Of a DNA stretch of 64,000 nucleotides, positions 1 to 64,000 are shown one piece after another. Below the pieces are notes generated by a model, which did no database searches, was not told where the DNA came from, and saw nothing but the letters and a program-made list of their open reading frames with translations. Numbering within the stretch: the first letter of the stretch is position 1; every line of letters starts with the position of its first letter. Source of the stretch: Nitrosopumilaceae archaeon (GTDB lineage: Archaea > Thermoproteota > Nitrososphaeria > Nitrososphaerales > Nitrosopumilaceae); contig OZ242274.1 of assembly GCA_965207375.1 (NCBI GenBank), positions 1,280,001 through 1,344,000 on the forward strand. The letters are read 5' to 3'. A program made the translations under genes and the position numbers.

Positions 1-1873
1 CTTGAGCAACGGCTGAAGTTTGATTAACCTGTGGTACGTGTATTTCCTGTGGTATATTTTGTGTTGCATTTTGCTGTTGCTGCTGTTGCTGCTGTTGTTT
101 GAGTTGTTCAATTGCAGCCTCACGCTCTTGTAAGATATTTGCAATCTTGACCCATAATGGACTAGAGTATTTCTTTGTATTTGCCTGAGCCTCTGCTGCA
201 GTCATTGGATTGTCATGCTGTATCACTCCAAGTGCTGCAAGTGCTCTATTCCATCTGTCAACATGTTGGTGGCCGTGATGTACTTGACTTGCAAGGTACT
301 TTATATCTTCAATTAGTTCTGGGTCAGCTGTAGGTATTGGTACATCTTCTGGTACAACTACCGGTATATCTTGTGCGATATTTGATGTGTGATTAATCTG
401 TGGTACGTGTATTTCCTGTGGCTGTTGTTGTGGTGTACCTTGTTGCTTTGCCTTTTCATAACAAGTACCTAAAATGCAGAATTGTTCGTTTTGTGGCGGT
501 ACTGGTTGTGTTTGGTTTTGTTGCGGTGTATTTTGTGTTGCATTTTGTGGCTGCTGCTGCTGCTGTGAGCCTGCTGCATCCCTTGCAGCCTCTAATTTCT
601 TTAATTCTTCATATACCAAATTCCAAAATGGCACGTTACTATATTTTTCTACATTGGCTAGAGCCTCTTCTGCAGTCATTGGATTAGAGTGTTCTATTTC
701 TCCAAATGCTGCCAAAACTCTATTCCATAAATCAACGTGTTCTGCACCAAGATGCGTTTGTGCTGCCATTATCTTTGCACCGTCTATTACTGTAGGATCA
801 ATTTCAGGTATTGGACTATCTGGTATTGGTACGCCGGTTCTGATCATGTCAACGCCACCATCATCGTCCTGTACTAAGATTGTAAGACTGTGCCTAGAAC
901 CTATGTTGTAATCGGAGCTGGGACGTAACGTGACTGTGATGCTACCATCAGCTTCATCTATGTTATCATTTATTGTAAAAATCGTAAATGTTGCGGGCTC
1001 GCTTGCCAATATTGTATGATCCCCTTCTGGCGAGTGTGAATCTAGATAATCGCCGATTTGGGTAATGGTGTAATGTACTGGTAGGTTGGTAAAACTAGAA
1101 GGTGTAATCCCAATTGCTATTGAAGAGCTTTGACCCTCTATTCTGTTTAATTGGGCTGAGAAAATTTGTACTGTTGGAACTTCTCTTCCAAGATGAGCCT
1201 CCCAATAGTGTTGACTACCATGTTTTGTGTGACTTGGTGTGCTTGGGTGTAGCCACTCATAGAGGTATGGGTTATCTATAGTGCGTTGTACTATCGGTGA
1301 AACCATGACTAGGAGTGATTCACCAGCTACAACATTTCCTAGTTTTGTATTATATGAGGCACTACCTGATGTGTCTCTTGCATTGATTGTTATCTTTTTG
1401 TAAGTAAAAGGAAGGAAGGTAGGGTTGGTTCCCGAGTCCCTGTCGGCCGTGTTACCGTAGGTTGCAAATGTTTCAGTGTCACTGCTAGTGCCCCCGAGGG
1501 TGGCAGTATTGGAATTATTACATCTGCTTGTTGCACTTGGCTTGGCACTGTTAGATAAATTACAGTCATCAATTTGGACATAAAATTCTATTGTTCCATT
1601 TGCAGGCTCATCTAGAGTTACAGTTACTGTGAGGGGTTGGCCGTGAGTTGGATTGTTTAGTGTGACTGTTGCTCTGTTTATCTCCTTATCATCTGTATAA
1701 AATTGATCAGACATTTTATTGACTGGCTCAGGTATGGGGTCACAATGAGCCACTTTGGGTGTTCTTTCTGAGTAATAGCAAAATCCATGATCGGAGAATG
1801 CCTCTGGTGTCTGGAAACCAAGTAATAATGATATAGAAAATGCCACAATTATTGTATAATGTAATGTTTTCAC
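1..1873 (-). CDS. Secreted/surface protein (signal peptide, variable domain, Calx-beta-like domain, helical HVDRWNR repeats, poly-Gln linkers); runs off the left edge; paralog of 61574..63625
   Basis: Not in the ORF track. Manual translation from GTG at 1873 is open for 624 codons: MKTLHYTIIVAFSISLLLGFQTPEAFSDH...NDNIDEADGSITVTL...VQDDD...HVDLWNRVLAAFGEIEHSNPMTAEEA...HVDRWNRALAALG; colinear with the 683-aa ORF. Confidence 0.9.
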   Translation of the reverse strand, partial: MKTLHYTIIVAFSISLLLGFQTPEAFSDHGFCYYSERTPKVAHCDPIPEPVNKMSDQFYTDDKEINRATVTLNNPTHGQPLTVTVTLDEPANGTIEFYVQIDDCNLSNSAKPSATSRCNNSNTATLGGTSSDTETFATYGNTADRDSGTNPTFLPFTYKKITINARDTSGSASYNTKLGNVVAGESLLVMVSPIVQRTIDNPYLYEWLHPSTPSHTKHGSQHYWEAHLGREVPTVQIFSAQLNRIEGQSSSIAIGITPSSFTNLPVHYTITQIGDYLDSHSPEGDHTILASEPATFTIFTINDNIDEADGSITVTLRPSSDYNIGSRHSLTILVQDDDGGVDMIRTGVPIPDSPIPEIDPTVIDGAKIMAAQTHLGAEHVDLWNRVLAAFGEIEHSNPMTAEEALANVEKYSNVPFWNLVYEELKKLEAARDAAGSQQQQQPQNATQNTPQQNQTQPVPPQNEQFCILGTCYEKAKQQGTPQQQPQEIHVPQINHTSNIAQDIPVVVPEDVPIPTADPELIEDIKYLASQVHHGHQHVDRWNRALAALGVIQHDNPMTAAEAQANTKKYSSPLWVKIANILQEREAAIEQLKQQQQQQQQQNATQNIPQEIHVPQVNQTSAVAQ

Positions 1874-1882
1874 AAAATTAAC

Positions 1883-1900
1883 GGGGGGGGGGTTCTAAAA
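1883..1900 (-). promoter_or_regulatory. C10 homopolymer preceded by TTTTAGAA, 9 nt upstream of the GTG start
   Basis: G10 at 1883-1892 on the + strand; same motif at 63634-63651 in front of the paralog. Confidence 0.6.
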
Positions 1901-2131
1901 ATGTTGCGATTTGAATGGCATGTGTAAGATATTTGGGTTTAGCGTGTGGTAAAATTGTACGAGTCGTGTCTAATTGGATACCCCTCATTTTTGACATTTA
2001 ATTAGGACACACATCAACATGACTGCAAATCCTGATTTGAATCTATTTTACATCTTGAATCCGTGCAGCAATTGACCATTAGAATTTACCATACAAAAAT
2101 CAAATAGATGTGTTCTTTTTGCAAAATCACT

Positions 2132-12835: not shown

Positions 12836-14311
12836 TAGTTAGTGTTATAACCCCTCTCTATTTCCACATGAGGGACATAGTACACCAATGTTCAAGTCGT
12901 ATGTTTATGCTATTGCCCTCCTTTGTACCTGTAACATCTTGTTGTAGATGTGTACCTTGAGATTAATCTCTTGTATGATGTTTTCCCACGTTACAGCAGA
13001 TACCGAATCACCAAACAGTCGCTTAATTGATGATATTACTATCTCAACTATCCATCTTTTGCCATATTGCACCCTTTTTTTCCAGACCTTCCTGTTTGCC
13101 TCGCGTTCTTCTTTTGTCAGCTGTGCAAATTTTTTAGGATCTGATACATCACCACCTAGTTGATCAATGGCTGCAAGAGTACGATCCCTACTGACACCAT
13201 CTGAACGCGTATTTGCATTGTGTTTTATTCTGATGCATGGTTTGATTTTTAGCTTTTTACATAATGCAAATATTTTACGCGAGTCAAACCCACCGTCTGC
13301 CCGCACGACTATTTTTAATTCATCCAATAATTCATTATTCAGAGATTGATATTCTTGCATGTCGTCTTCATCTTTCTGTGAATCTGCAATTGGATGTTCT
13401 GGGTCATCTGCTTTTTGACATGCTGATTGATCCTCATTTGATTTCTCTGCTTGGTTAATTCTGTCTGCAACATCTATACCGCAGTTTTCTAGTGCAGTAC
13501 ACGTAAGTTCCTCAAACTGTGGGGCCTCACCTATCCTTTCATCTGTTACGCTAAAGGAGAGTATCTCACGCGTGTCAGTATCTACAACAATGACAAACCT
13601 GATGAATCCGTGCTGTACTTTGTGCCTGTACCTGATGTATTCGCTTCTCTTACTAGGACTGAGACCAGTACCATCAGGTGCAAGATGAAGTGCACTCTTT
13701 TTGCCTTGTGCCGTAATGAGGTCATCTTTGATTGACACCTTGACGGTTTTCATTCTTTTTTGGATCTGACTAAAGCTTGGAACATACTCTTGGCCTAGTG
13801 CCTCTGTTGCAAAGCCTTCTAGTATGCGATAGGATAATCCACAAAATGCCCTCATTGTTGCAAGAGCTAGTATTGTAGATTCTGCGTATCTGTAAGGGTG
13901 ACCGTTTTTCTTTTTGTTGGCTCTTTTGAGTTCATCGTCATGATCTGGATTTTTTTTGGGATATATCATGCGTCCAACTGCTAGATATCTTGCATCGTTT
14001 TGTGCATTGGTCATCTTTAGACGTGATTTTTGCTTTGGTTTACTCGAAACTTTTTGCTCTGTCAATATTGTGACCTCCTGTAAATCATGTACCAGGCGTT
14101 GCCGAAGATTTTATACCTCCTTGGTTTGTATTGTATCAGGATTGTTTGCTCATCTCTTATGTGCAATCTGAGATGAGTAGGCAATCCTACTATTTGGATC
14201 TGAAAGGTCAAACTTTGTCTATTATATCATCAAATTGATTTCTCCCAGACCGAATCTGGCCTGAAAATTGCAAATTTTGAAAAATTCTAGGCAGGGTTAT
14301 AACACAAACTA
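12836..14311 (-). mobile_element. Complete IS5-family element (IS903/ISH1-like), 1476 bp
   Basis: 18-bp TIR TAGTT(A/T)GTGTTATAACCC; 8-bp TSD ATCCGTAG at 12828-12835 and 14312-14319. Confidence 0.93.
12905..14065 (-). CDS. IS5-family DDE transposase
   Basis: LAPDGTG, VRADGGFDS, YGKRWIVEIVISSIKRLFG; AGGAGGT upstream of the TTG start. Confidence 0.92.
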   Translation of the reverse strand: MTEQKVSSKPKQKSRLKMTNAQNDARYLAVGRMIYPKKNPDHDDELKRANKKKNGHPYRYAESTILALATMRAFCGLSYRILEGFATEALGQEYVPSFSQIQKRMKTVKVSIKDDLITAQGKKSALHLAPDGTGLSPSKRSEYIRYRHKVQHGFIRFVIVVDTDTREILSFSVTDERIGEAPQFEELTCTALENCGIDVADRINQAEKSNEDQSACQKADDPEHPIADSQKDEDDMQEYQSLNNELLDELKIVVRADGGFDSRKIFALCKKLKIKPCIRIKHNANTRSDGVSRDRTLAAIDQLGGDVSDPKKFAQLTKEEREANRKVWKKRVQYGKRWIVEIVISSIKRLFGDSVSAVTWENIIQEINLKVHIYNKMLQVQRRAIA

Positions 14312-14593: not shown

Positions 14594-14694
14594 GTATCTG
14601 TTAACGTTGTTTTGCATTTATGGTATTTTTAGACACAAAATTACTTTATTATCAAAAAATAGAACAAAAATCTAGACCTGATGTTAACATTTAC
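14594..14694 (+). repeat. ~100-bp dispersed structured repeat, copy 1
   Basis: GTATCTGTTAAC...TTTATGGTATTTTTAGACACAAAATTAC...GATGTTAACATTTAC; aligns with copies at 20360, 25335, 37552. Confidence 0.85.
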
Positions 14695-20359: not shown

Positions 20360-20460
20360 GTATCTGTTAGTATCGTTTTGAATTTATGGTAATTTTAGAC
20401 ACCAAATTATTTTGCCGTCAAAAGATAGAATAAAAATTCAGGCGCGATGTTAACCCATAT
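20360..20460 (+). repeat. ~100-bp dispersed structured repeat, copy 2
   Basis: GTATCTGTTAGTATCGTTTTGAATTT...AAATTCAGGCGCGATGTTAAC. Confidence 0.85.
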
Positions 20461-25334: not shown

Positions 25335-25436
25335 GTATCTGTTAGCATTGTTTTGAATTTATGGTAATTTTAGACATGAAATTATTTTGCTGTCAAAAGA
25401 TAGAATGAAAAATTCAGGCATAACGTTAACACTTAC
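25335..25436 (+). repeat. ~100-bp dispersed structured repeat, copy 3, with probable 8-bp TSD
   Basis: Flanked by GCCAAATT (25327-25334) and GCCAAACT (25437-25444). Confidence 0.85.
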
Positions 25437-26730: not shown

Positions 26731-26744
26731 AGGACAAAACACTA

Positions 26745-27455
26745 GATGAATCCGTGCTGTACTTTGTGCCTGTACCTGATGTATTCGCTTCTCTTACTAG
26801 GACTGAGACCAGTACCATCAGGTGCAAGATGAAGTGCACTCTTTTTGCCTTGTGCCGTAATGAGGTCATCTTTGATTGACACCTTGACGGTTTTCATTCT
26901 TTTTTGGATCTGACTAAAGCTTGGAACATACTCTTGGCCTAGTGCCTCTGTTGCAAAGCCTTCTAGTATGCGATAGGATAATCCACAAAATGCCCTCATT
27001 GTTGCAAGAGCTAGTATTGTAGATTCTGCGTATCTGTAAGGGTGACCGTTTTTCTTTTTGTTGGCTCTTTTGAGTTCATCGTCATGATCTGGATTTTTTT
27101 TGGGATATATCATGCGTCCAACTGCTAGATATCTTGCATCGTTTTGTGCATTGGTCATCTTTAGACGTGATTTTTGCTTTGGTTTACTCGAAACTTTTTG
27201 CTCTGTCAATATTGTGACCTCCTGTAAATCATGTACCAGGCGTTGCCGAAGATTTTATACCTCCTTGGTTTGTATTGTATCAGGATTGTTTGCTCATCTC
27301 TTATGTGCAATCTGAGATGAGTAGGCAATCCTACTATTTGGATCTGAAAGGTCAAACTTTGTCTATTATATCATCAAATTGATTTCTCCCAGACCGAATC
27401 TGGCCTGAAAATTGCAAATTTTGAAAAATTCTAGGCAGGGTTATAACACAAACTA
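26745..27455 (-). mobile_element. Truncated copy of the IS5 element (5' part, 711 bp)
   Basis: Matches 13601-14311 including the TIR; transposase stops after ...HGFI. Confidence 0.92.
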
Positions 27456-27504: not shown

Positions 27505-29298
27505 TTGATTAAAATACAATTAGCAATACCCATGTTTGCACTAATTCTCTTGGTGCCAGCACGTGTACTTGCACAACAAACAAATGAATTAAACACCGAA
27601 CAAATAGATAATCCTCACATTTTATCACCTGATGATATTGTAGGTCCGGTAGGACGAGCTGATGACTTGAATGAAGCTCACAGTAAATTAACTAATATAA
27701 TGCAACAACAGTCTTTTGGAAATTTTGATACACCTGATTACCCATTTATTCTAGCAGCAGTTGATGAGCAAAAAGGTGACCTTGTTGTAGTGATGCATGC
27801 AATGGCCGCTGCAGCCAACATCGAATACGAAGAAGAAGAGATTGCAATTGCACTAAACACAGATGTTCCTATTGATATTCAGTATGGCGTCTTTGTCTTA
27901 GAAGTATCTCAATCAAGAATTGAGAGCTGGAAGCAGTACTATAAGGACAACTGTATTCCAGTAAAAGCAGGTTATCAGACAGTCTGTAAAATTTTTGGAG
28001 ATAACTTAAGAAAGGAAGGAATTAACCCTGATTCTTTAGGTTCTACGTCTCCTGTTACTCCAAAACCTGCAAAGTCAACCTCTCCATGTGATGAAGATGA
28101 CGATTCACTGGCTTGTTATTATTACAAACGATACCAGGATAAATGCATTCCAACTAAAACCACGTCCCGATGCGATACTTATGCAACCCAAATTAAAAAT
28201 GCAGGGTATGAAGTACCAACAAAGCCTGCAACAATAGTTAAAGTTACGCCACCAAAAGTTACTGGCATACAGGCTGCAATGTATCGTGATGATATCAAGA
28301 TAACATGGAATACACCGCAATATGCAGTTGACAAGTATAGAGTGTACATATATGAGGATAACAGACGTGTTGATAGAGAGTATATCTATACAAACTCTTA
28401 CACATACGATGAGGTAAAAAAAGGCAAAGATTACAAGTTTAGAGTGTATGTCTACTATGAGAGTAATACTAAACTGACATCGACTTATGGTGGATATGTT
28501 TGGTCTAACGTGGTAAGTGTACCTGCGGGTACAACTACGATAACACCTGTGCCCAATCCCAACCCAACTCCTACCCCAGCAGTTGAAACAAACTCGACTT
28601 CAATATATGGTGGAAATCTATACCATTTGAAGTCACAAAACAATACGGGGATTTATCACACCCCATCAACGGTTACAATAGGTGCAACAAACAGTACCGG
28701 CTCTGTAGGTGTTGTAGTAAGTGGTCACGGTATCATCTTACCTACAGGTCACACATTTGCAGGTCATGCATTTGGAGCTAACAGTACTATATTCTCAAAT
28801 AGCATGGTACTAGTCCATTATGGACCACAAATAGATGCAGCATTCATACCAATTACAGAGCCAGACATCGTAGCAGACAACAAAGTTCAATCCTTAACTG
28901 GAGATGTAATATCTGTGGTTAATGGAACTTTGAGTAGTGTACCGCCTTATGAAACTTTGACCATTTATGGAAGTCAAACAAATGGTAATGGTACTTTACT
29001 ATACAAAAATGCTACATCCTTTTCAAGTGAGGGCAACCAGTTCTTAACCAATGCCGGAATAGCTTTGTATCCTAGCATTGGTGGTGATAGTGGAGCTCCA
29101 ATAATATACAACGATAATGGAACTGCATTCCTAGTTGGTGTGCATCAAGGCGGTGTATGTATTTTTGAAACCAATTCTAATAACTATAGAATTGATATTG
29201 AGAGTCATCTAAATCTTTGCAATTATGCCACTGATTATTATTATTACAAGATATTTAGTGCATGGGAACTTGTAAGAGAGACACTTTCGCTACAATGA
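27505..29298 (+). CDS. Secreted multidomain S1 (trypsin-like) serine protease with FN3 domain
   Basis: Signal peptide; two Cys repeats; FN3 (ITWNTP...YRVY...YKFRV); PT linker; triad VVSGH / IDAAF / GGDSGAP. Confidence 0.8.
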   Translation: MIKIQLAIPMFALILLVPARVLAQQTNELNTEQIDNPHILSPDDIVGPVGRADDLNEAHSKLTNIMQQQSFGNFDTPDYPFILAAVDEQKGDLVVVMHAMAAAANIEYEEEEIAIALNTDVPIDIQYGVFVLEVSQSRIESWKQYYKDNCIPVKAGYQTVCKIFGDNLRKEGINPDSLGSTSPVTPKPAKSTSPCDEDDDSLACYYYKRYQDKCIPTKTTSRCDTYATQIKNAGYEVPTKPATIVKVTPPKVTGIQAAMYRDDIKITWNTPQYAVDKYRVYIYEDNRRVDREYIYTNSYTYDEVKKGKDYKFRVYVYYESNTKLTSTYGGYVWSNVVSVPAGTTTITPVPNPNPTPTPAVETNSTSIYGGNLYHLKSQNNTGIYHTPSTVTIGATNSTGSVGVVVSGHGIILPTGHTFAGHAFGANSTIFSNSMVLVHYGPQIDAAFIPITEPDIVADNKVQSLTGDVISVVNGTLSSVPPYETLTIYGSQTNGNGTLLYKNATSFSSEGNQFLTNAGIALYPSIGGDSGAPIIYNDNGTAFLVGVHQGGVCIFETNSNNYRIDIESHLNLCNYATDYYYYKIFSAWELVRETLSLQ

Positions 29299-29489: not shown

Positions 29490-29562
29490 ACTAGGCAAGA
29501 CCTTTTTCAACTATGCCAACAAAATAAACACGAAATGCTTTGAGCACATTATGCAGTGTACC

Positions 29563-29642
29563 AGATGGTGGCCAAGATGGTGGCCAAGATGGTGGCCAAG
29601 ATGGTGGCCAAGATGGTGGCCAAGATGGTGGCCAAGATGGTG
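29563..29642. repeat. 12-bp tandem repeat (AGATGGTGGCCA) x6.7
   Basis: Six perfect units plus 8 nt, no spacers. Confidence 0.97.
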
Positions 29643-29933
29643 CTGTTTTTAGATGAGACATACATCTTACGAGATACAAGAGTTTTTCAAGACCCAAGAT
29701 ATCGTATTGATATGGTGCACTGTAGGGCAGTAACGCTTTGACTTTCTAAAGTTGCGTGCATAAAAAATACCAAATCTATGATTTTTACATTTAATTCAGG
29801 CATGTCACTTTATAAAATCGATCAGTCACAAATTATGGTGTTTTTTGACATGGTATCGTTTATGATTTAAAACTTGATTTTTCCAGAATAATATATTTAT
29901 GTTCAAAAAAAACCATATCTGTAGAGAAAAATT

Positions 29934-37552: not shown

Positions 37553-37648
37553 TATTTGTTAACTTTGAATTTATAGTAATTTTAAGCATGAAATTACTTT
37601 GCTGTCAAAATATAGAATAAAAAATTCAGGTGTGACGTTAACACTTGC
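37552..37648 (+). repeat. ~100-bp dispersed structured repeat, copy 4
   Basis: GTATTTGTTAACTTTGAATTT...AAATTCAGGTGTGACGTTAACACTTGC. Confidence 0.85.
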
Positions 37649-45119: not shown

Positions 45120-46868
45120 CGATTCTCCAGCGTTATCTGTTGGTCAAAGTCAACATGCAAATTTTTTCCGGATTGCCCGTGCCTAAAATTTCTTCAATTG
45201 TCACATAGTTTGTTCTTGTGCAGGTAAAAGAGATCAAAAATTTAACCATTTTTTCAAAATTTGTTAACCTACATGATCCAAATGTATCACGACATGTAGT
45301 CCCATCGTATTTCGCAATGATGGGACTAACATATCAAAAATCATATACAAGATCAAAATTTAAACTACACGAAAAATTTGAGGCTATACGAAACAAGACA
45401 TCGGTACTGCTTACGCGCAGTACTGACAAAATGACAAGAGTTACTAGATGGATGAGTACACGTGTATCTTGGAGCAAGGGTGCACAAGGACGCGGAAATC
45501 GTGCCTTGAAAATACTAGAAACACAAAATGCAATAAAAAAAGTCAGGCATAACCATTACACAGTACAGTCCCAATCTAAGGACAACATCAGATATACCGT
45601 GATACAGAAAAAAAATTCCTGGTCATGTGACTGTCCAGATCACAAATACAGACAGGCTCAATGCAAGCATATCCTAGCAGTAATTGCAGATACTGTAGAC
45701 AGGGATGCAGAGACAATAATTGATGAACAATCCAAAGATGCAGCTAAGCTGCCTTGCCAGGACAAACAGCCCAAAGATGCAGATGACAATACTGAGAAAA
45801 AAACCACAGAAATAGTTCTAATAGAGATTCCATCACACTGTATGCATTGCGGTGACGAACACATCATAAAATATGGTCATATACAGCGTAGACATGGCAC
45901 TACGCAACGATACCAATGCAAAAATTGCAATCGTGTCTTTGGGTACAGGGGCGGCATGGAACACACACGAATAGAATCATGGGCGATTCTAGATGCACTT
46001 GATGCCTACTATAAGGGACATACACCTAGTGCAATACAAGACACGCTAGCACAAAAGGGAGTGTATGTGTGTGTATCTACGATATACAGATGGATAATCA
46101 AATTTGTAACAATGGTGTATGTATACCTGATGTCACTTTCAATTAATACAGGCAATCGATTCTGTGCAGACGAGGAATACATTTCAATAAGAGGTAAACA
46201 AAATTATCTTTTTGCAGAGACTGATTATGATACCAGATTTTTACTAGCATGGGAGGTTGCAAACTGCAAGGACGGACACAATGCAGAAAACCTACTCAAA
46301 GCTGCAGCAGCCCGTGCCGGAAAGAAACCTACAGAATTTGTAAGCGATGCCCTGCCCTCATATGCACAAGCATTTGAATCAGTGTATGCTGCACCAAATG
46401 CACTACATCAACATTGCACACACATATCAAATGCAGGAATTTCCAAAAAGAACAACAACAATGTCTGAGAAAGATTCAACGGAACATTACGTGCTATACA
46501 ACGACCCAGACGCGGCATTAAAAGTAAAAACTCGCCAATATTTGCAGGATGTGATATTTATTACAATTTCATGCGACCTCACTCAAGCCTTGGAGGCAAG
46601 ACGCCTGCAGAGGCTGCAGGTATAACTATACACGGACAAAAATGGAGGACAGTAATATCAAACGCTGCACTGTACGTGCAATAAACTCTAATGTCAAAGT
46701 TACATGTGTGATGAAACAGTGACAACTCGGAGAAGATTATGTTTTGCTGGTATGTGATTGCTCTGCTAATTTGTGATGGTTCTGCGGACACAGGCAGAAA
46801 TCTAGGCACGGGCAATTCGGAGAAAATTTGTATATTGACTTTTACCAACAGATAACGCTGGAGAATCG
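45120..46868 (+). mobile_element. IS6-like element with ~72-bp terminal inverted repeats
   Basis: 45120-45193 is the reverse complement of 46796-46868 (outer 25 bp perfect: CGATTCTCCAGCGTTATCTGTTGGT). Confidence 0.85.
45218..46684 (+). pseudogene. SWIM Zn-finger + Zn-ribbon + IS6-type DDE transposase with in-frame TGA
   Basis: CDCPDH...CKH, CMHC...CKNC, STIYRWI, ADE, VSDAL, NNNV*ERFNGTLR...YNFMRPHSSLGGKTPAEAAGI to TAA at 46684; true start probably downstream (~45452). Confidence 0.85.
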
Positions 46869-61573: not shown

Positions 61574-63625
61574 TTAATTTCTTAGTAACTGTGTCAAGGC
61601 ATCTGCTATTTGTTGCCATAGTGGATTAGAATATTTTTGGGTATTGTTTTGGGCCTCGGCTGCAGTCATAGGATTGTCATGTTCTATAATACCAAATGCT
61701 GCAAGTGTTCTATTCCATAAATCAGCTTGTTCTTTTACAGCTTCAATTAAAGTTGCATTTATCGTGTATGGTGGTTCTACTGTAGGTACCGGTTCTATTG
61801 GTTCTACCTGTGGTGTATCTTGAGCAATATTTGATGTGTGATTAACCTGTGGTATGTGTATTTCCTGTGGCTCTTGCTGTGGTGTGTTTTGTGTTGCATT
61901 TTGCTGTTGTTGTTGCTGTTGTTGTTGCTGTTGTTGTTGCTGTTGTTGTTGCTGTTGTTGTTGCTGTTGTTGTTCAATTGCAGCCTCACGCTCTTGTAAG
62001 ATATTTGCAATCTTGACCCATAATGGACTAGAATATTTCTTTGTATTTGCCTGAGCTTCAGCTGCAGTAAGTGGATTATCATGTTGTATCACTCCAAATG
62101 CTGCAAGTGCTCTATTCCATCTGTCAACGTGTTGGTGACCGTGATGTGTCATAGATGCAAGGTACTTTATATCCTCAATTAGTTCTGGATCAGCTGTAGG
62201 TATTGGTATAGATTCTGGTACAATGTATGGTGTATCTTGTGCAATATTTGATGTATGATTAATTTGTGGTACGTGTATTTCCTGTGGTGTGTTTTGTGTT
62301 GCGTTTTGTGGCTGCTGTTGCTGCTGCTGCTGTTGCTGCTGCTGCTGTGCGGCTGCATCCCTTGCAGCCTCTAATTTAGCCAGTTCTTGAGCAACTAAAC
62401 CCCAAAATGCATTATTGTATTTTTTTACATTGGCCAGAGCCTCTGCTGCAGTCATAGGATTGTCATGTTGTATTTCTCCAAATGCTGCCAAGACCCTATT
62501 CCATCTGTCAACGTGATCTGCACCAAGCTGCGTTTGTTCTGCCATTAACTTTGCACCGTCTATTACTGATGGATCAATTTCAGCTAATGGATTTTCTGGT
62601 ATTGGAACGCCAGTTTTGAGGCAACCACCGGTACATGAATCATTATCTTCTATGTTTACTGTAAAGCTAGATGGCTCAACTATTCGATAATTAGAACTGG
62701 GGAGTAGTGTAAATGTAACACTGCCGAGTGCTTCTACTGCGTTATCATTTGTGGTGATTACCTGCAAAAGACCATTATGGTTACGTGTAACCACATATTC
62801 ACCGGACGGTGTGGTACTAAAGTCTCCTACTATGTTAATGGAATAACGTATATCTAATGTTGTAGGTGGTGATATAGAGACTAAAACAGAGGCTATCTCG
62901 CCTTCTGTGACTACTGTGGCACGTTGTATTAATGATACGGCGGGGAGGTTAGTAGGAGTGGTAGTAGCACCAAACGAAGCCTCCCAATAGGAATTAGAAG
63001 CATACGTTGTGTCACGTGGTGTGGCCGGATTTATCCAGTCATAGAGGTATGGAGTATCTATAGTGCGTTTTATTATTGGTGAAACCATGAATAGGAGTGA
63101 TTCACCAGATACAACATTTGTTGATCTTGTGTCCCATGAGGCACTACCTGATGTATCGTCTTGATTGATGGTTATCTTTTTGAAGGTATAGACACGATAA
63201 CTACCATCCTTAAGAGCATAACTTAGAATGTCACTGCTGGTACTGTGAGCTACTGTGGCATGATTGGTATTACTGCACAGGCTTGTTGCACTTGCCCTAG
63301 CAGAAGCGTGAGAGGCATGGCAGTCATCAACTTGGACCCAAAATTCTATTGGTGCATTTGCTGCCTCATCTAGAGTTACAGTTACTGTGAAGAGTTGACC
63401 GTGAGCTGTATTACTGGTTGTGACTTGAGCCTTGTTTATCTCGCCATTGTCTTTATAAAATTGAGGGAGTATTGACGGGGCTGCATCATCATCTGGATGA
63501 CAGTCCTTTGTCACTGCGCCGTCTATAAAGCAAAAATCATGGTCAGAAAATGCCTCTGGTGTTTGAACACCAAGCAATAATGATATAGAAACTGCCATAA
63601 TAACTGCAAAGTATAAGGTTTTCAC
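61574..63625 (-). CDS. Secreted/surface protein with Calx-beta-like domain, three helical WNR.LAAFG repeats and poly-Gln linkers
   Basis: Signal peptide; TTNDNAVEALGSVTFTL...IEDND; Q12 (62312-62347) and Q24 (61901-61972). Confidence 0.9.
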   Translation of the reverse strand: MKTLYFAVIMAVSISLLLGVQTPEAFSDHDFCFIDGAVTKDCHPDDDAAPSILPQFYKDNGEINKAQVTTSNTAHGQLFTVTVTLDEAANAPIEFWVQVDDCHASHASARASATSLCSNTNHATVAHSTSSDILSYALKDGSYRVYTFKKITINQDDTSGSASWDTRSTNVVSGESLLFMVSPIIKRTIDTPYLYDWINPATPRDTTYASNSYWEASFGATTTPTNLPAVSLIQRATVVTEGEIASVLVSISPPTTLDIRYSINIVGDFSTTPSGEYVVTRNHNGLLQVITTNDNAVEALGSVTFTLLPSSNYRIVEPSSFTVNIEDNDSCTGGCLKTGVPIPENPLAEIDPSVIDGAKLMAEQTQLGADHVDRWNRVLAAFGEIQHDNPMTAAEALANVKKYNNAFWGLVAQELAKLEAARDAAAQQQQQQQQQQQQPQNATQNTPQEIHVPQINHTSNIAQDTPYIVPESIPIPTADPELIEDIKYLASMTHHGHQHVDRWNRALAAFGVIQHDNPLTAAEAQANTKKYSSPLWVKIANILQEREAAIEQQQQQQQQQQQQQQQQQQQQQQQQNATQNTPQQEPQEIHIPQVNHTSNIAQDTPQVEPIEPVPTVEPPYTINATLIEAVKEQADLWNRTLAAFGIIEHDNPMTAAEAQNNTQKYSNPLWQQIADALTQLLRN

Positions 63626-63633
63626 GAAATTAC

Positions 63634-63651
63634 GGGGGGGGGGTTCTAAAA
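63634..63651 (-). promoter_or_regulatory. C10 homopolymer preceded by TTTTAGAA, 8 nt upstream of the GTG start
   Basis: G10 at 63634-63643 on the + strand; same motif as 1883-1900. Confidence 0.6.
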
Positions 63652-63744
63652 AACGTTACTATTTGAGCACAGATTTTTGTTCTTGTTAGGCATGACTTTT
63701 TTAATTACAAAACATCTCTCTGGTATATCGTAGATAGATGCTAT

Positions 63745-64000
63745 ATGAAAAATTTTTCACCCACGGCTAATAATGACAATTCTAATTTTTTGAATAAACG
63801 TAGAATCAAACATGAGGTAATCTATGTTGATGAATCTGGTAATCCTGGCATGACAAAAATTGAACATAATAACAAGCATCCATTTTTTATTATGGGATTT
63901 TGTTATTGCAAAAAATCTAAAAAACTAGACAAAAATCTTCATCGTCTGTTGTTGAAATTACATAAAGACAGTATTTATCCTAAAAAATTAAAAGAGCTCA
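63745..64000 (+). CDS. DUF3800 family protein, 5' part (runs off the window)
   Basis: Open frame ...EVIYVDESGNPG...PFFIMGF...KLKEL. Confidence 0.8.
   Translation, partial: MKNFSPTANNDNSNFLNKRRIKHEVIYVDESGNPGMTKIEHNNKHPFFIMGFCYCKKSKKLDKNLHRLLLKLHKDSIYPKKLKEL

Follow-up and report, generated by a model that had tools for sequence, protein, structure and literature searches.

Two paralogous archaeal genes have a pure run of ten cytosines (C10) that separates their start codon from a TATA-like box; what is it doing there? Both genes lie in a 64,000-nt stretch of the chromosome of an ammonia-oxidising Nitrosopumilaceae archaeon, hereafter the window (G000:C1:1280001-1344000, i.e., genome G000, chromosome contig C1), and both encode predicted secreted proteins. 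Judged by their sequence context, the runs are real, non-random and organised like a contingency system, resembling bacterial repeat phase variation. That they are functional expression switches of either kind considered below, start-codon capture or promoter dimmer, is probable; that the two C10 runs are contingency (phase-variation) switches acting by start-codon capture has, in our estimation, somewhat better than an even chance.

At locus 1, the minus strand reads TTTTTAGAA-C10 (1883-1892)-GTTAATTTT-GTG (1873). Upstream of the run lies a conserved block (1893..1914), the putative core promoter, with a B recognition element (BRE)-like AA at 1905-1904 and the TATA-like 8-mer TTTTAGAA at 1900-1893, and downstream a 9-nt linker (1874..1882) leads to paralogue 1, the 5' part of an open reading frame (ORF) of 710 amino acids (1..1873) that ends 260 nt outside the window. 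Locus 2, likewise on the minus strand, is ordered TTTTTTAGAA-C10 (63634-63643)-GTAATTTC-GTG (63625) and comprises a T6 variant of the putative core-promoter block (63644..63666), an 8-nt linker (63626..63633) and paralogue 2 (P0001, 683 amino acids, 61574..63625). Both elements are present as a preliminary description of the window had reported them, and they are the sole G/C runs of at least 7 nt there, in agreement with its remark that the window holds no other long run. It had further regarded the sequence beyond the T-rich box as unrelated. This holds farther upstream, whereas the shared block exceeds TTTTAGAA and begins some 22 nt before the run (at 1914 and 63666); it also extends downstream through the run and the 8-9 nt linker into the signal-peptide code. 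Averaged over 11 copies, one recently duplicated pair excluded, identity drops from 0.95 in the stretch next to the run (1-10 nt upstream) to 0.83 at 11-22 nt; farther out it amounts to 0.27-0.29. Conservation ends 22 nt upstream of the run, which equals the footprint of BRE plus TATA. A 39-nt repeat with five further matches on C1 lies upstream of locus 2 (window 63731-63769), adjoining a divergent ORF of about 280 codons.

Could runs of this length be a product of chance? On C1, which is 2.16 Mb long, has 38% GC and carries an archaeal amoA, G/C runs of 4, 5, 6, 7 and 8 nt number 3033, 591, 82, 16 and 2, and extrapolation predicts about 0.3-0.6 runs of at least 9 nt. Observed were 19 (four of 9 nt, ten of 10, four of 11 and one of 12), and the long runs are thus not due to chance. 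Sixteen of the 19 sit at the 5' ends of one paralogous secreted-protein family and two more at giant secreted-protein genes. The genome-wide listing of runs and downstream genes that had been proposed as a check therefore places 18/19 at the 5' ends of predicted secreted-protein genes, and this confinement supports the general idea that the homopolymers are candidate phase-variation switches of secreted or surface paralogues. Three of the features by which contingency loci are recognised are found here: pure G/C runs of at least 7-9 nt that are commoner than chance, a position in the promoter or 5' reading frame of predicted secreted-protein genes (the same 18/19), and a length that differs between near-identical copies (a C10/C11 pair here; C13/C9 in genome G095).

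The two giant genes differ in how the run is placed. In a giant ORF of 5,805 codons (L055), G11 at G000:C1:1795394-1795404 frameshifts the 5' end; a length of 10 or 13 would restore the frame. One ATG follows directly after G11, and another, located upstream with a weak site at -28, is in register given G10 or G13. A distance of 9 nt separates the other run, G10 at C1:1916464-1916473, from the start of its giant secreted-protein gene, which is interrupted by an insertion sequence (IS; 1914668-1916410, 8-bp target duplication), and no TATA-like site was found at the usual distance from the start behind this run. Runs longer than 5 were absent from the 7 other giant-gene 5' ends checked. The sole long run without link to a secreted-protein gene is C11 at C1:1480665-1480675, which is followed by TTTTGTGAGGGG, a possible hairpin, and lies among short ORFs.

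The family itself has 19 members with a common C-terminal helical repeat. Besides the 16 with a run of at least 9 nt, a 17th carries C7 and an ORF broken by an insertion sequence, and two members with unrelated N-termini have no run. Two placements can be distinguished. In ten spacer-type members, including both window genes, the run follows the BRE/TATA-like box and precedes the start; it is C10 in seven of them and C9, C11 and C12 in one each, and the ORF is intact in every one (669-728 amino acids). In six coding-type members the promoter is normally spaced and the run falls within the signal-peptide code, with one copy in frame and five out. Two of these six have the run 25 nt into the coding sequence: C11 at 1663227 is in frame (745 amino acids), and C10 at 1705307 is out of frame and followed by 679 open codons. 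In the other four (C1 1760909, 1969725, 2021115 and 1437363) it lies 59 nt into the coding sequence, and the segment around it has a direct repeat of about 22 nt on either side. These four carry C9 or C10, are all out of frame, would be in frame at C8 or C11, have an in-frame ATG after the run, and in three cases keep 678-783 open codons. It looks as if a second promoter and start had been inserted upstream, which would convert a promoter switch into a frameshift switch. The bases after the run in these copies resemble the start of spacer-type genes. One subfamily shows both placements, in the spacer (315821) and in the signal-peptide code (1663227, 1705307). By the computed effect on the frame, the six coding-type copies would represent a true translational switch inside the signal-peptide code.

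Within the family, run length differs from C7 to C12 among spacer copies and in one C10/C11 pair. Variation among nine aligned copies is concentrated in the beta domains (mean identity per window 29-66%; ratio of nonsynonymous to synonymous differences, pN/pS, 0.75-0.78), and the ends are conserved (0.30-0.32). The nearest neighbours among these copies change along the gene, which suggests that the family is a mosaic formed by recombination.

How might a run in a promoter spacer act as a switch? One of two models in the preliminary description, there called (a), takes the run as the TATA-to-start spacer of a leaderless mRNA; this model is favoured here, backed by a genome-trained promoter model and by homologues. 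The promoter model (16 BRE-TATA positions, free offset) was fitted by expectation-maximisation to 654 ATG genes standing first in their operon, which were picked from 1,758 long ORFs for their unambiguous starts. Its promoter component falls at offsets -30 (16%), -29 (36%), -28 (20%), -27 (4%) and -26 (2%), with 0-4% at flanking offsets. At a threshold of 4 bits the counts from -30 to -26 are 40, 87, 34, 19 and 9 (flank mean 8.9), and 93 GTG-first ORFs give the same peak (10, 11, 5, 2 and 2). Owing to this peak from -30 to -28, leaderless genes are predicted to be common in the genome and tightly spaced. This agrees with the archaeal promoter anatomy outlined in PMC5316973 (TATA -30 to -20, BRE 5 bp farther upstream, A/T at -10, start on a pyrimidine-purine step) and with the GUG-started leaderless mRNAs of Haloferax, which according to PMC4983044 make up 6% of leaderless transcripts and are weakly expressed.

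An archaeal BRE/TATA-like site is found at both window loci at -27 from GTG, with 5.4 bits at locus 1, where the site at -28 scores at most 0, and 3.9 bits at locus 2. The best sites of the spacer-type copies lie at -28 (3, at C1 478305, 1427032 and 1358096), -27 (6, including both window loci) and -26 (1), and that of the C7 copy at -24; the coding-type copies have theirs at -29 in 6/6 cases. At modal spacing, a site at -27 predicts a transcript start on the third base of GTG (1871 and 63623), a T-G step, which is why we read C10 as a putative off or low state and C11-C12 as on. Slippage by 1-2 bases would shift the start of the leaderless transcript relative to the start codon. At offset -27 most messages would be made without a start codon, leaving the gene off or low; one added C would move the offset to -28 and two to -29, transcription would begin on the first G, and the gene would be on.

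Is this arrangement confined to one genome? With P0001 alone as query, 0/30 relative genomes matched. The blank is due to the query, since the nine-row family alignment matched 6/400 genomes of the taxonomic family. The homologue set comprises 12 helical-repeat genes with readable 5' end from G095, G111, G384 and G395; a thirteenth (L143) was cut off and dropped. A run of at least 9 C or G stands at the 5' end of 11/12 of these genes. Nine of the 11 carry it between the TATA-like site and the start (C9-C13, G12, G15), at offsets -28 (four), -29 (three), -32 and -36, and in the remaining two it either frameshifts the signal peptide (G10, in frame at 9) or lies beside an assembly gap. There was no run in L141, nor in L137 and L139, which match the beta domains only. 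As far as the compared flanks tell, position and not sequence is conserved: the homologue flanks are unrelated to those of G000, in two other genera. Within G095, the alignment of L133 with L140 (5,275 columns) is free of mismatches and contains a single 4-nt gap, located in the spacer run (C13 at -32 vs C9 at -28), and a second C10 run within this 5,275-bp duplication is unchanged. L134 (G384:C95) has at least 7 G and C runs of 9-15 nt plus an assembly gap before the homologous gene.

Long runs are also unevenly distributed among the relatives. At least 7 runs (of 9 nt or more) were found in 28/28 genomes of genera g1, g2, g7, g13, g28 and g30 vs 1/122 others, and no G/C run of at least 9 nt in 76 of the same 150 genomes, counts that treat kin as independent and ignore GC content; the sampled loci of two congeners have about 50% GC. 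Run-bearing genes examined by eye (30/73 runs in G004, 22/22 in G001) include several methyltransferase-, restriction- and glycosylation-like frames or signal peptides. The paralogue pair L088/L103 (G001:C7, C66), 94% alike, has G10 out of frame and G11 in frame. A helical-repeat search of five further run-rich g30 genomes gave no match, and a metagenome scan with the N-terminal 200 residues gave 286 pattern matches of which 0 were confirmed. Three genomes of genus g2 (G066, G084, G101) contain 250-290 G/C runs of at least 9 nt in 3.2-3.9 Mb, for which GC content, co-binned DNA or a very large phasome might account. Loss of mismatch repair was considered as a cause of the run distribution and rejected: the MutS domain was absent in 5/5 genomes searched and is missing also in G007, which has no long runs, and the NucS domain, absent in G000, was present in 2 of the other 4 genomes, both run-rich congeners. 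The absence of both domains from G000 was counted in favour of the runs being switches.

Does the length of the run vary in nature? Four of 11 listed sequencing runs (X1-X4) were examined, all as contigs, which drop rare variants, and the following holds among the contigs listed. X1 and X2 represent one sample, possibly the source sample of the assembly, and X4 belongs to a second study. At locus 2, a 142-nt contig spans 63624-63765 gap-free, at chromosome depth and with C10, in both X1 and X2; consequently, the run is no assembly artefact at this locus. In X3, two continuations follow the locus-2 promoter variant, one with C9 (at depth 34 and with one substitution) and one with C10 (at depth 15.8), and in X4 the cassette with its run is present. 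A one-base deletion at the 1358096 run, seen in contigs among the best-supported rows of a 15.7-kb region, is indistinguishable from paralogues. In X3 and X4, promoter variants other than those of the assembly stand next to upstream flanks like the ones at C1 1110788 and C1 69704, which may hint at promoter-cassette exchange between loci.

Several points weigh against start-codon capture. The ten spacer copies are, by their sequence, not independent, given duplication and probable gene conversion; the nine homologue spacer cases include two copies in one duplication, and homologue starts were taken as the first codon giving a long ORF. C10 is the only length at locus 2 in the X1 and X2 contigs; in X3 a second upstream context shares the locus-2 promoter variant, so that C9 and C10 are not assignable to locus 2 alone. 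The C13/C9 difference in G095 could reflect two haplotypes or long-read error. Furthermore, -27 is a thin tail of the offset distribution and not empty (19/654 genes at or above 4 bits vs the flank mean of 8.9 and 87 at -29), and the promoter model is built on predicted start codons, with a register that leans on the BRE-like AA. Finally, a longer run puts C at -10 and could thereby weaken the promoter, blurring or reversing the predicted direction.

This last point leads to the first alternative, a phase-variable promoter in which run length acts as a dimmer of promoter opening or strength, through a GC-rich spacer over -10, with transcription starting on or before the GTG. We consider it unlikely, yet it has arguments on its side. 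The run spans -19 to -10, while strong promoters of the genome are A/T-rich at -10: this position is A/T in 84% of 153 strong promoters, none of which has more than 7 G/C in -19 to -10. In the window genes the base at -10 is C if counted from GTG and T if counted from the TATA box at usual spacing. The small excess of -27 over background would fit a dimmer as well, and an effect on opening is one idea discussed for tprL of Treponema pallidum (PMC7864442). However, the G/C runs of the homologues cluster at -28/-29 (7/9), so that a run-filled spacer seems compatible with standard geometry, and the genome offset peak is only about three bases wide. A bacterial-type promoter was also looked for: a sigma-70 scan of 1850-2200 gave 3 sites vs a shuffle mean of 1.2, none of them at the cassette, and was set aside as the wrong promoter type for an archaeon.

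The runs might instead be neutral passengers, i.e., an ancestral promoter C run was spread by duplication and gene conversion and drifts in length without any selected switch. The single cassette shared by the ten spacer copies would fit this idea, as would the missing run in two family members and in one G095 homologue, and no locus-level switching was seen in the X1 or X2 contigs. However, the run occurs in at least three placements in the family (spacer and two signal-peptide positions) and in two giant genes, other genera use C or G with unrelated flanks, out-of-frame copies retain 678-783 open codons in 4/5 cases, and C1 has hardly any runs of 8 elsewhere. On balance, we find a neutral origin rather improbable.

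Still less credence is given to a fixed cis element, whether a protein or small-RNA site, a DNA structure or a recombination handle for family shuffling, whose length would matter little. Such a role could be imagined, as the family looks mosaic, with the run at the edge of the shared block, and a G-repeat reportedly serves as small-RNA target in Helicobacter pylori (PMC8295292). Against it speaks that both the base (C or G on the coding strand) and the flanks vary between genera, with position alone conserved, and that lengths range from 7 to 15.

The second model of the preliminary description, (b), in which an upstream ATG becomes fused to the gene as a translational switch, is very improbable and fails as a general mechanism. 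Its details at locus 1 are correct: the upstream ORF from ATG 1988 (1878..1988, minus strand) crosses the run, has 36 codons and ends in FLEPPPR-stop, and C9 would join ATG 1988 or 1997 to the main ORF, as is likewise possible at C1 1093932. Fusion is, however, in reach at 2/11 loci only, in unconserved sequence. At 9/11 loci, including locus 2, no upstream ATG is one base change from the frame, and the frame of ATG 63693 runs into the TAG of the T6-AGAA box. Moreover, upstream DNA is unrelated between copies, and about 38 mostly polar residues would precede the signal peptide. The 36-codon ORF was thus judged incidental. Finally, a sequencing or assembly artefact, conceivable in an assembly of four long contigs whose homopolymer lengths at unchecked loci may be wrong, is hardly credible given C10 in gap-free X1 and X2 contigs, the cassette with its run in X3 and X4, and such runs in fragmented congener genomes, which largely settle the existence of the run.

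If start-codon capture is adopted, how does it compare to known systems? Switching by slippage of G/C homopolymers is known from host-adapted bacteria. The opa genes of Neisseria form a dispersed, recombining multigene surface family in which each copy is frameshifted in the signal-peptide code by a pentamer repeat; apart from the repeat unit, they resemble the six coding-type copies described here. Neither porA nor the opa family of Neisseria is known to mix promoter and frameshift switches across copies. On the archaeal side, the haloarchaeal virus phiCh1 reportedly has a phase-variation system that varies adhesion proteins, which is viral and driven by recombinase inversion. It is the sole archaea-linked phase-variation system that the literature search returned, and it is not known to involve repeat slippage on chromosomal genes. 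In the open-access literature, with subscription papers and supplements outside the scope of the search, no repeat-driven phase variation in archaea was found. A 2025 review of phase variation mentions archaea once in its accessible part, as a group still to be surveyed (PMC11868660), and the consulted portions of PMC2831843 and PMC3711429, which include archaeal genomes, report no such G/C switches.

The closest parallel is provided by tprE/G/J/L and tp0126 of T. pallidum, where a 7-11 nt G/C homopolymer lies just upstream of the transcription start (PMC7864442). For tprL, this source places the start at the fourth base after the run and describes 8 G as active, 10 G as near background and the length as varying in vivo. 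As in tpr, a paralogous, signal-peptide-bearing surface family carries a G/C homopolymer in its promoter region. T. pallidum, however, has sigma-70 promoters, its mRNA is leadered and carries a ribosome-binding site, and for tprL a spacing effect is ruled out in that paper, whereas in our case a BRE/TATA-like promoter, a predicted leaderless mRNA and a loss or capture of the start codon are proposed. Promoter runs are also described for Neisseria porA and opc, with porA as a spacer-length switch between promoter elements (PMC7864442); there the spacing concerns -35 to -10, here TATA to start codon. The Campylobacter phasome, according to PMC6321876, contains many G/C runs beyond chance with a peak at 9-10 nt, in reading frames and promoters, and run-bearing genes of the congeners G001 and G004 look, by eye, of the same methyltransferase, restriction and glycosylation type.

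What kind of protein would be switched? Paralogue 1 has a signal-peptide-like N-terminus, two variable beta-sandwich domains and helical repeats with Q/P-rich linkers, its fold being taken from the model of paralogue 2. The latter shows signal-peptide-like residues 1-27, two predicted beta-sandwich domains, three helical repeats and a poly-Q stretch (model of P0001: mean predicted local distance difference test, pLDDT, 63; predicted template modelling score, pTM, 0.32). Top Foldseek matches of this model were NCX1 and tandem Calx-beta domains (E 3.5e-11 to 2e-8), followed by many Ig-like folds; Atlas leads for the fold stayed below 0.9. Pfam gave no Calx-beta hit for P0001 or any of the 9 aligned paralogues, and no Pfam or PDB sequence match for the family exceeded the cut-off. 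Calx-beta (PF03160), LapA-type or FN3 domains are present in many of 78 homologues, and one homologue is named Thaumarchaeota by its source. The N-termini are hydrophobic and signal-peptide-like, 16/17 passing a 19-residue threshold with paralogue 1 of the window just short of it, and no hydrophobic segment reaching 1.6 occurs after residue 40 in 17/17 proteins. Consequently, the label 'surface protein' given earlier stands as far as the signal-peptide-like N-terminus is concerned; no later membrane-spanning segment accompanies it, and we infer adhesion or surface display from the protein features alone. The helical repeats might bind the envelope.

With one run per family gene, in the spacer or in the signal-peptide code, a population would display varying subsets of mosaic Calx-beta-like proteins, and a virus, the host or a neighbour may be envisaged as the selective agent. 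As a wider, tentative reading, to which we would give slightly less than an even chance, the organism may be a host-associated archaeon with antigenic variation, in which at least 16 dispersed, recombining secreted-protein genes each carry a slippage switch, ten of them by leaderless start-codon capture, while related lineages rebuilt the switch independently with C or G runs. If true, a hallmark of host-adapted bacteria would extend to archaeal symbionts, a switch dependent on leaderless mRNA would be added to the known types, and candidate host- or virus-facing proteins would be named. For annotation this carries a warning, as a frameshift at a 5' end in these genomes may represent an off state and not an error or a pseudogene.

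Beyond the runs, some features of the assembly and the window deserve mention. ORFs of at least 200 codons cover 71% of the bases of C1 vs 7-14% of those of contigs C2-C4, which, from this low coverage, look like co-binned eukaryotic DNA; a search for eukaryotic small-subunit rRNA gave the archaeal rRNA gene as sole match. An 83-nt intergenic repeat occurs four times in the window (14611-14693, 20377-20459, 25352-25434 and 37564-37646), has 36 BLAST matches in the genome and is possibly a miniature mobile element. Among the larger mobile elements are an IS6-like element with DDE_Tnp_IS240 and SWIM domains and 71-nt inverted ends (45120-46868), of which about nine near-full copies exist on C1, and a DDE_Tnp_1-type transposase (12905-14065) with a partial copy (26742-27209) that has at least 300 identical bases in common with it. 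In addition, an ORF with FN3 domain (27505-29298) is followed by a 12-nt tandem repeat of about seven units (29544-29654).

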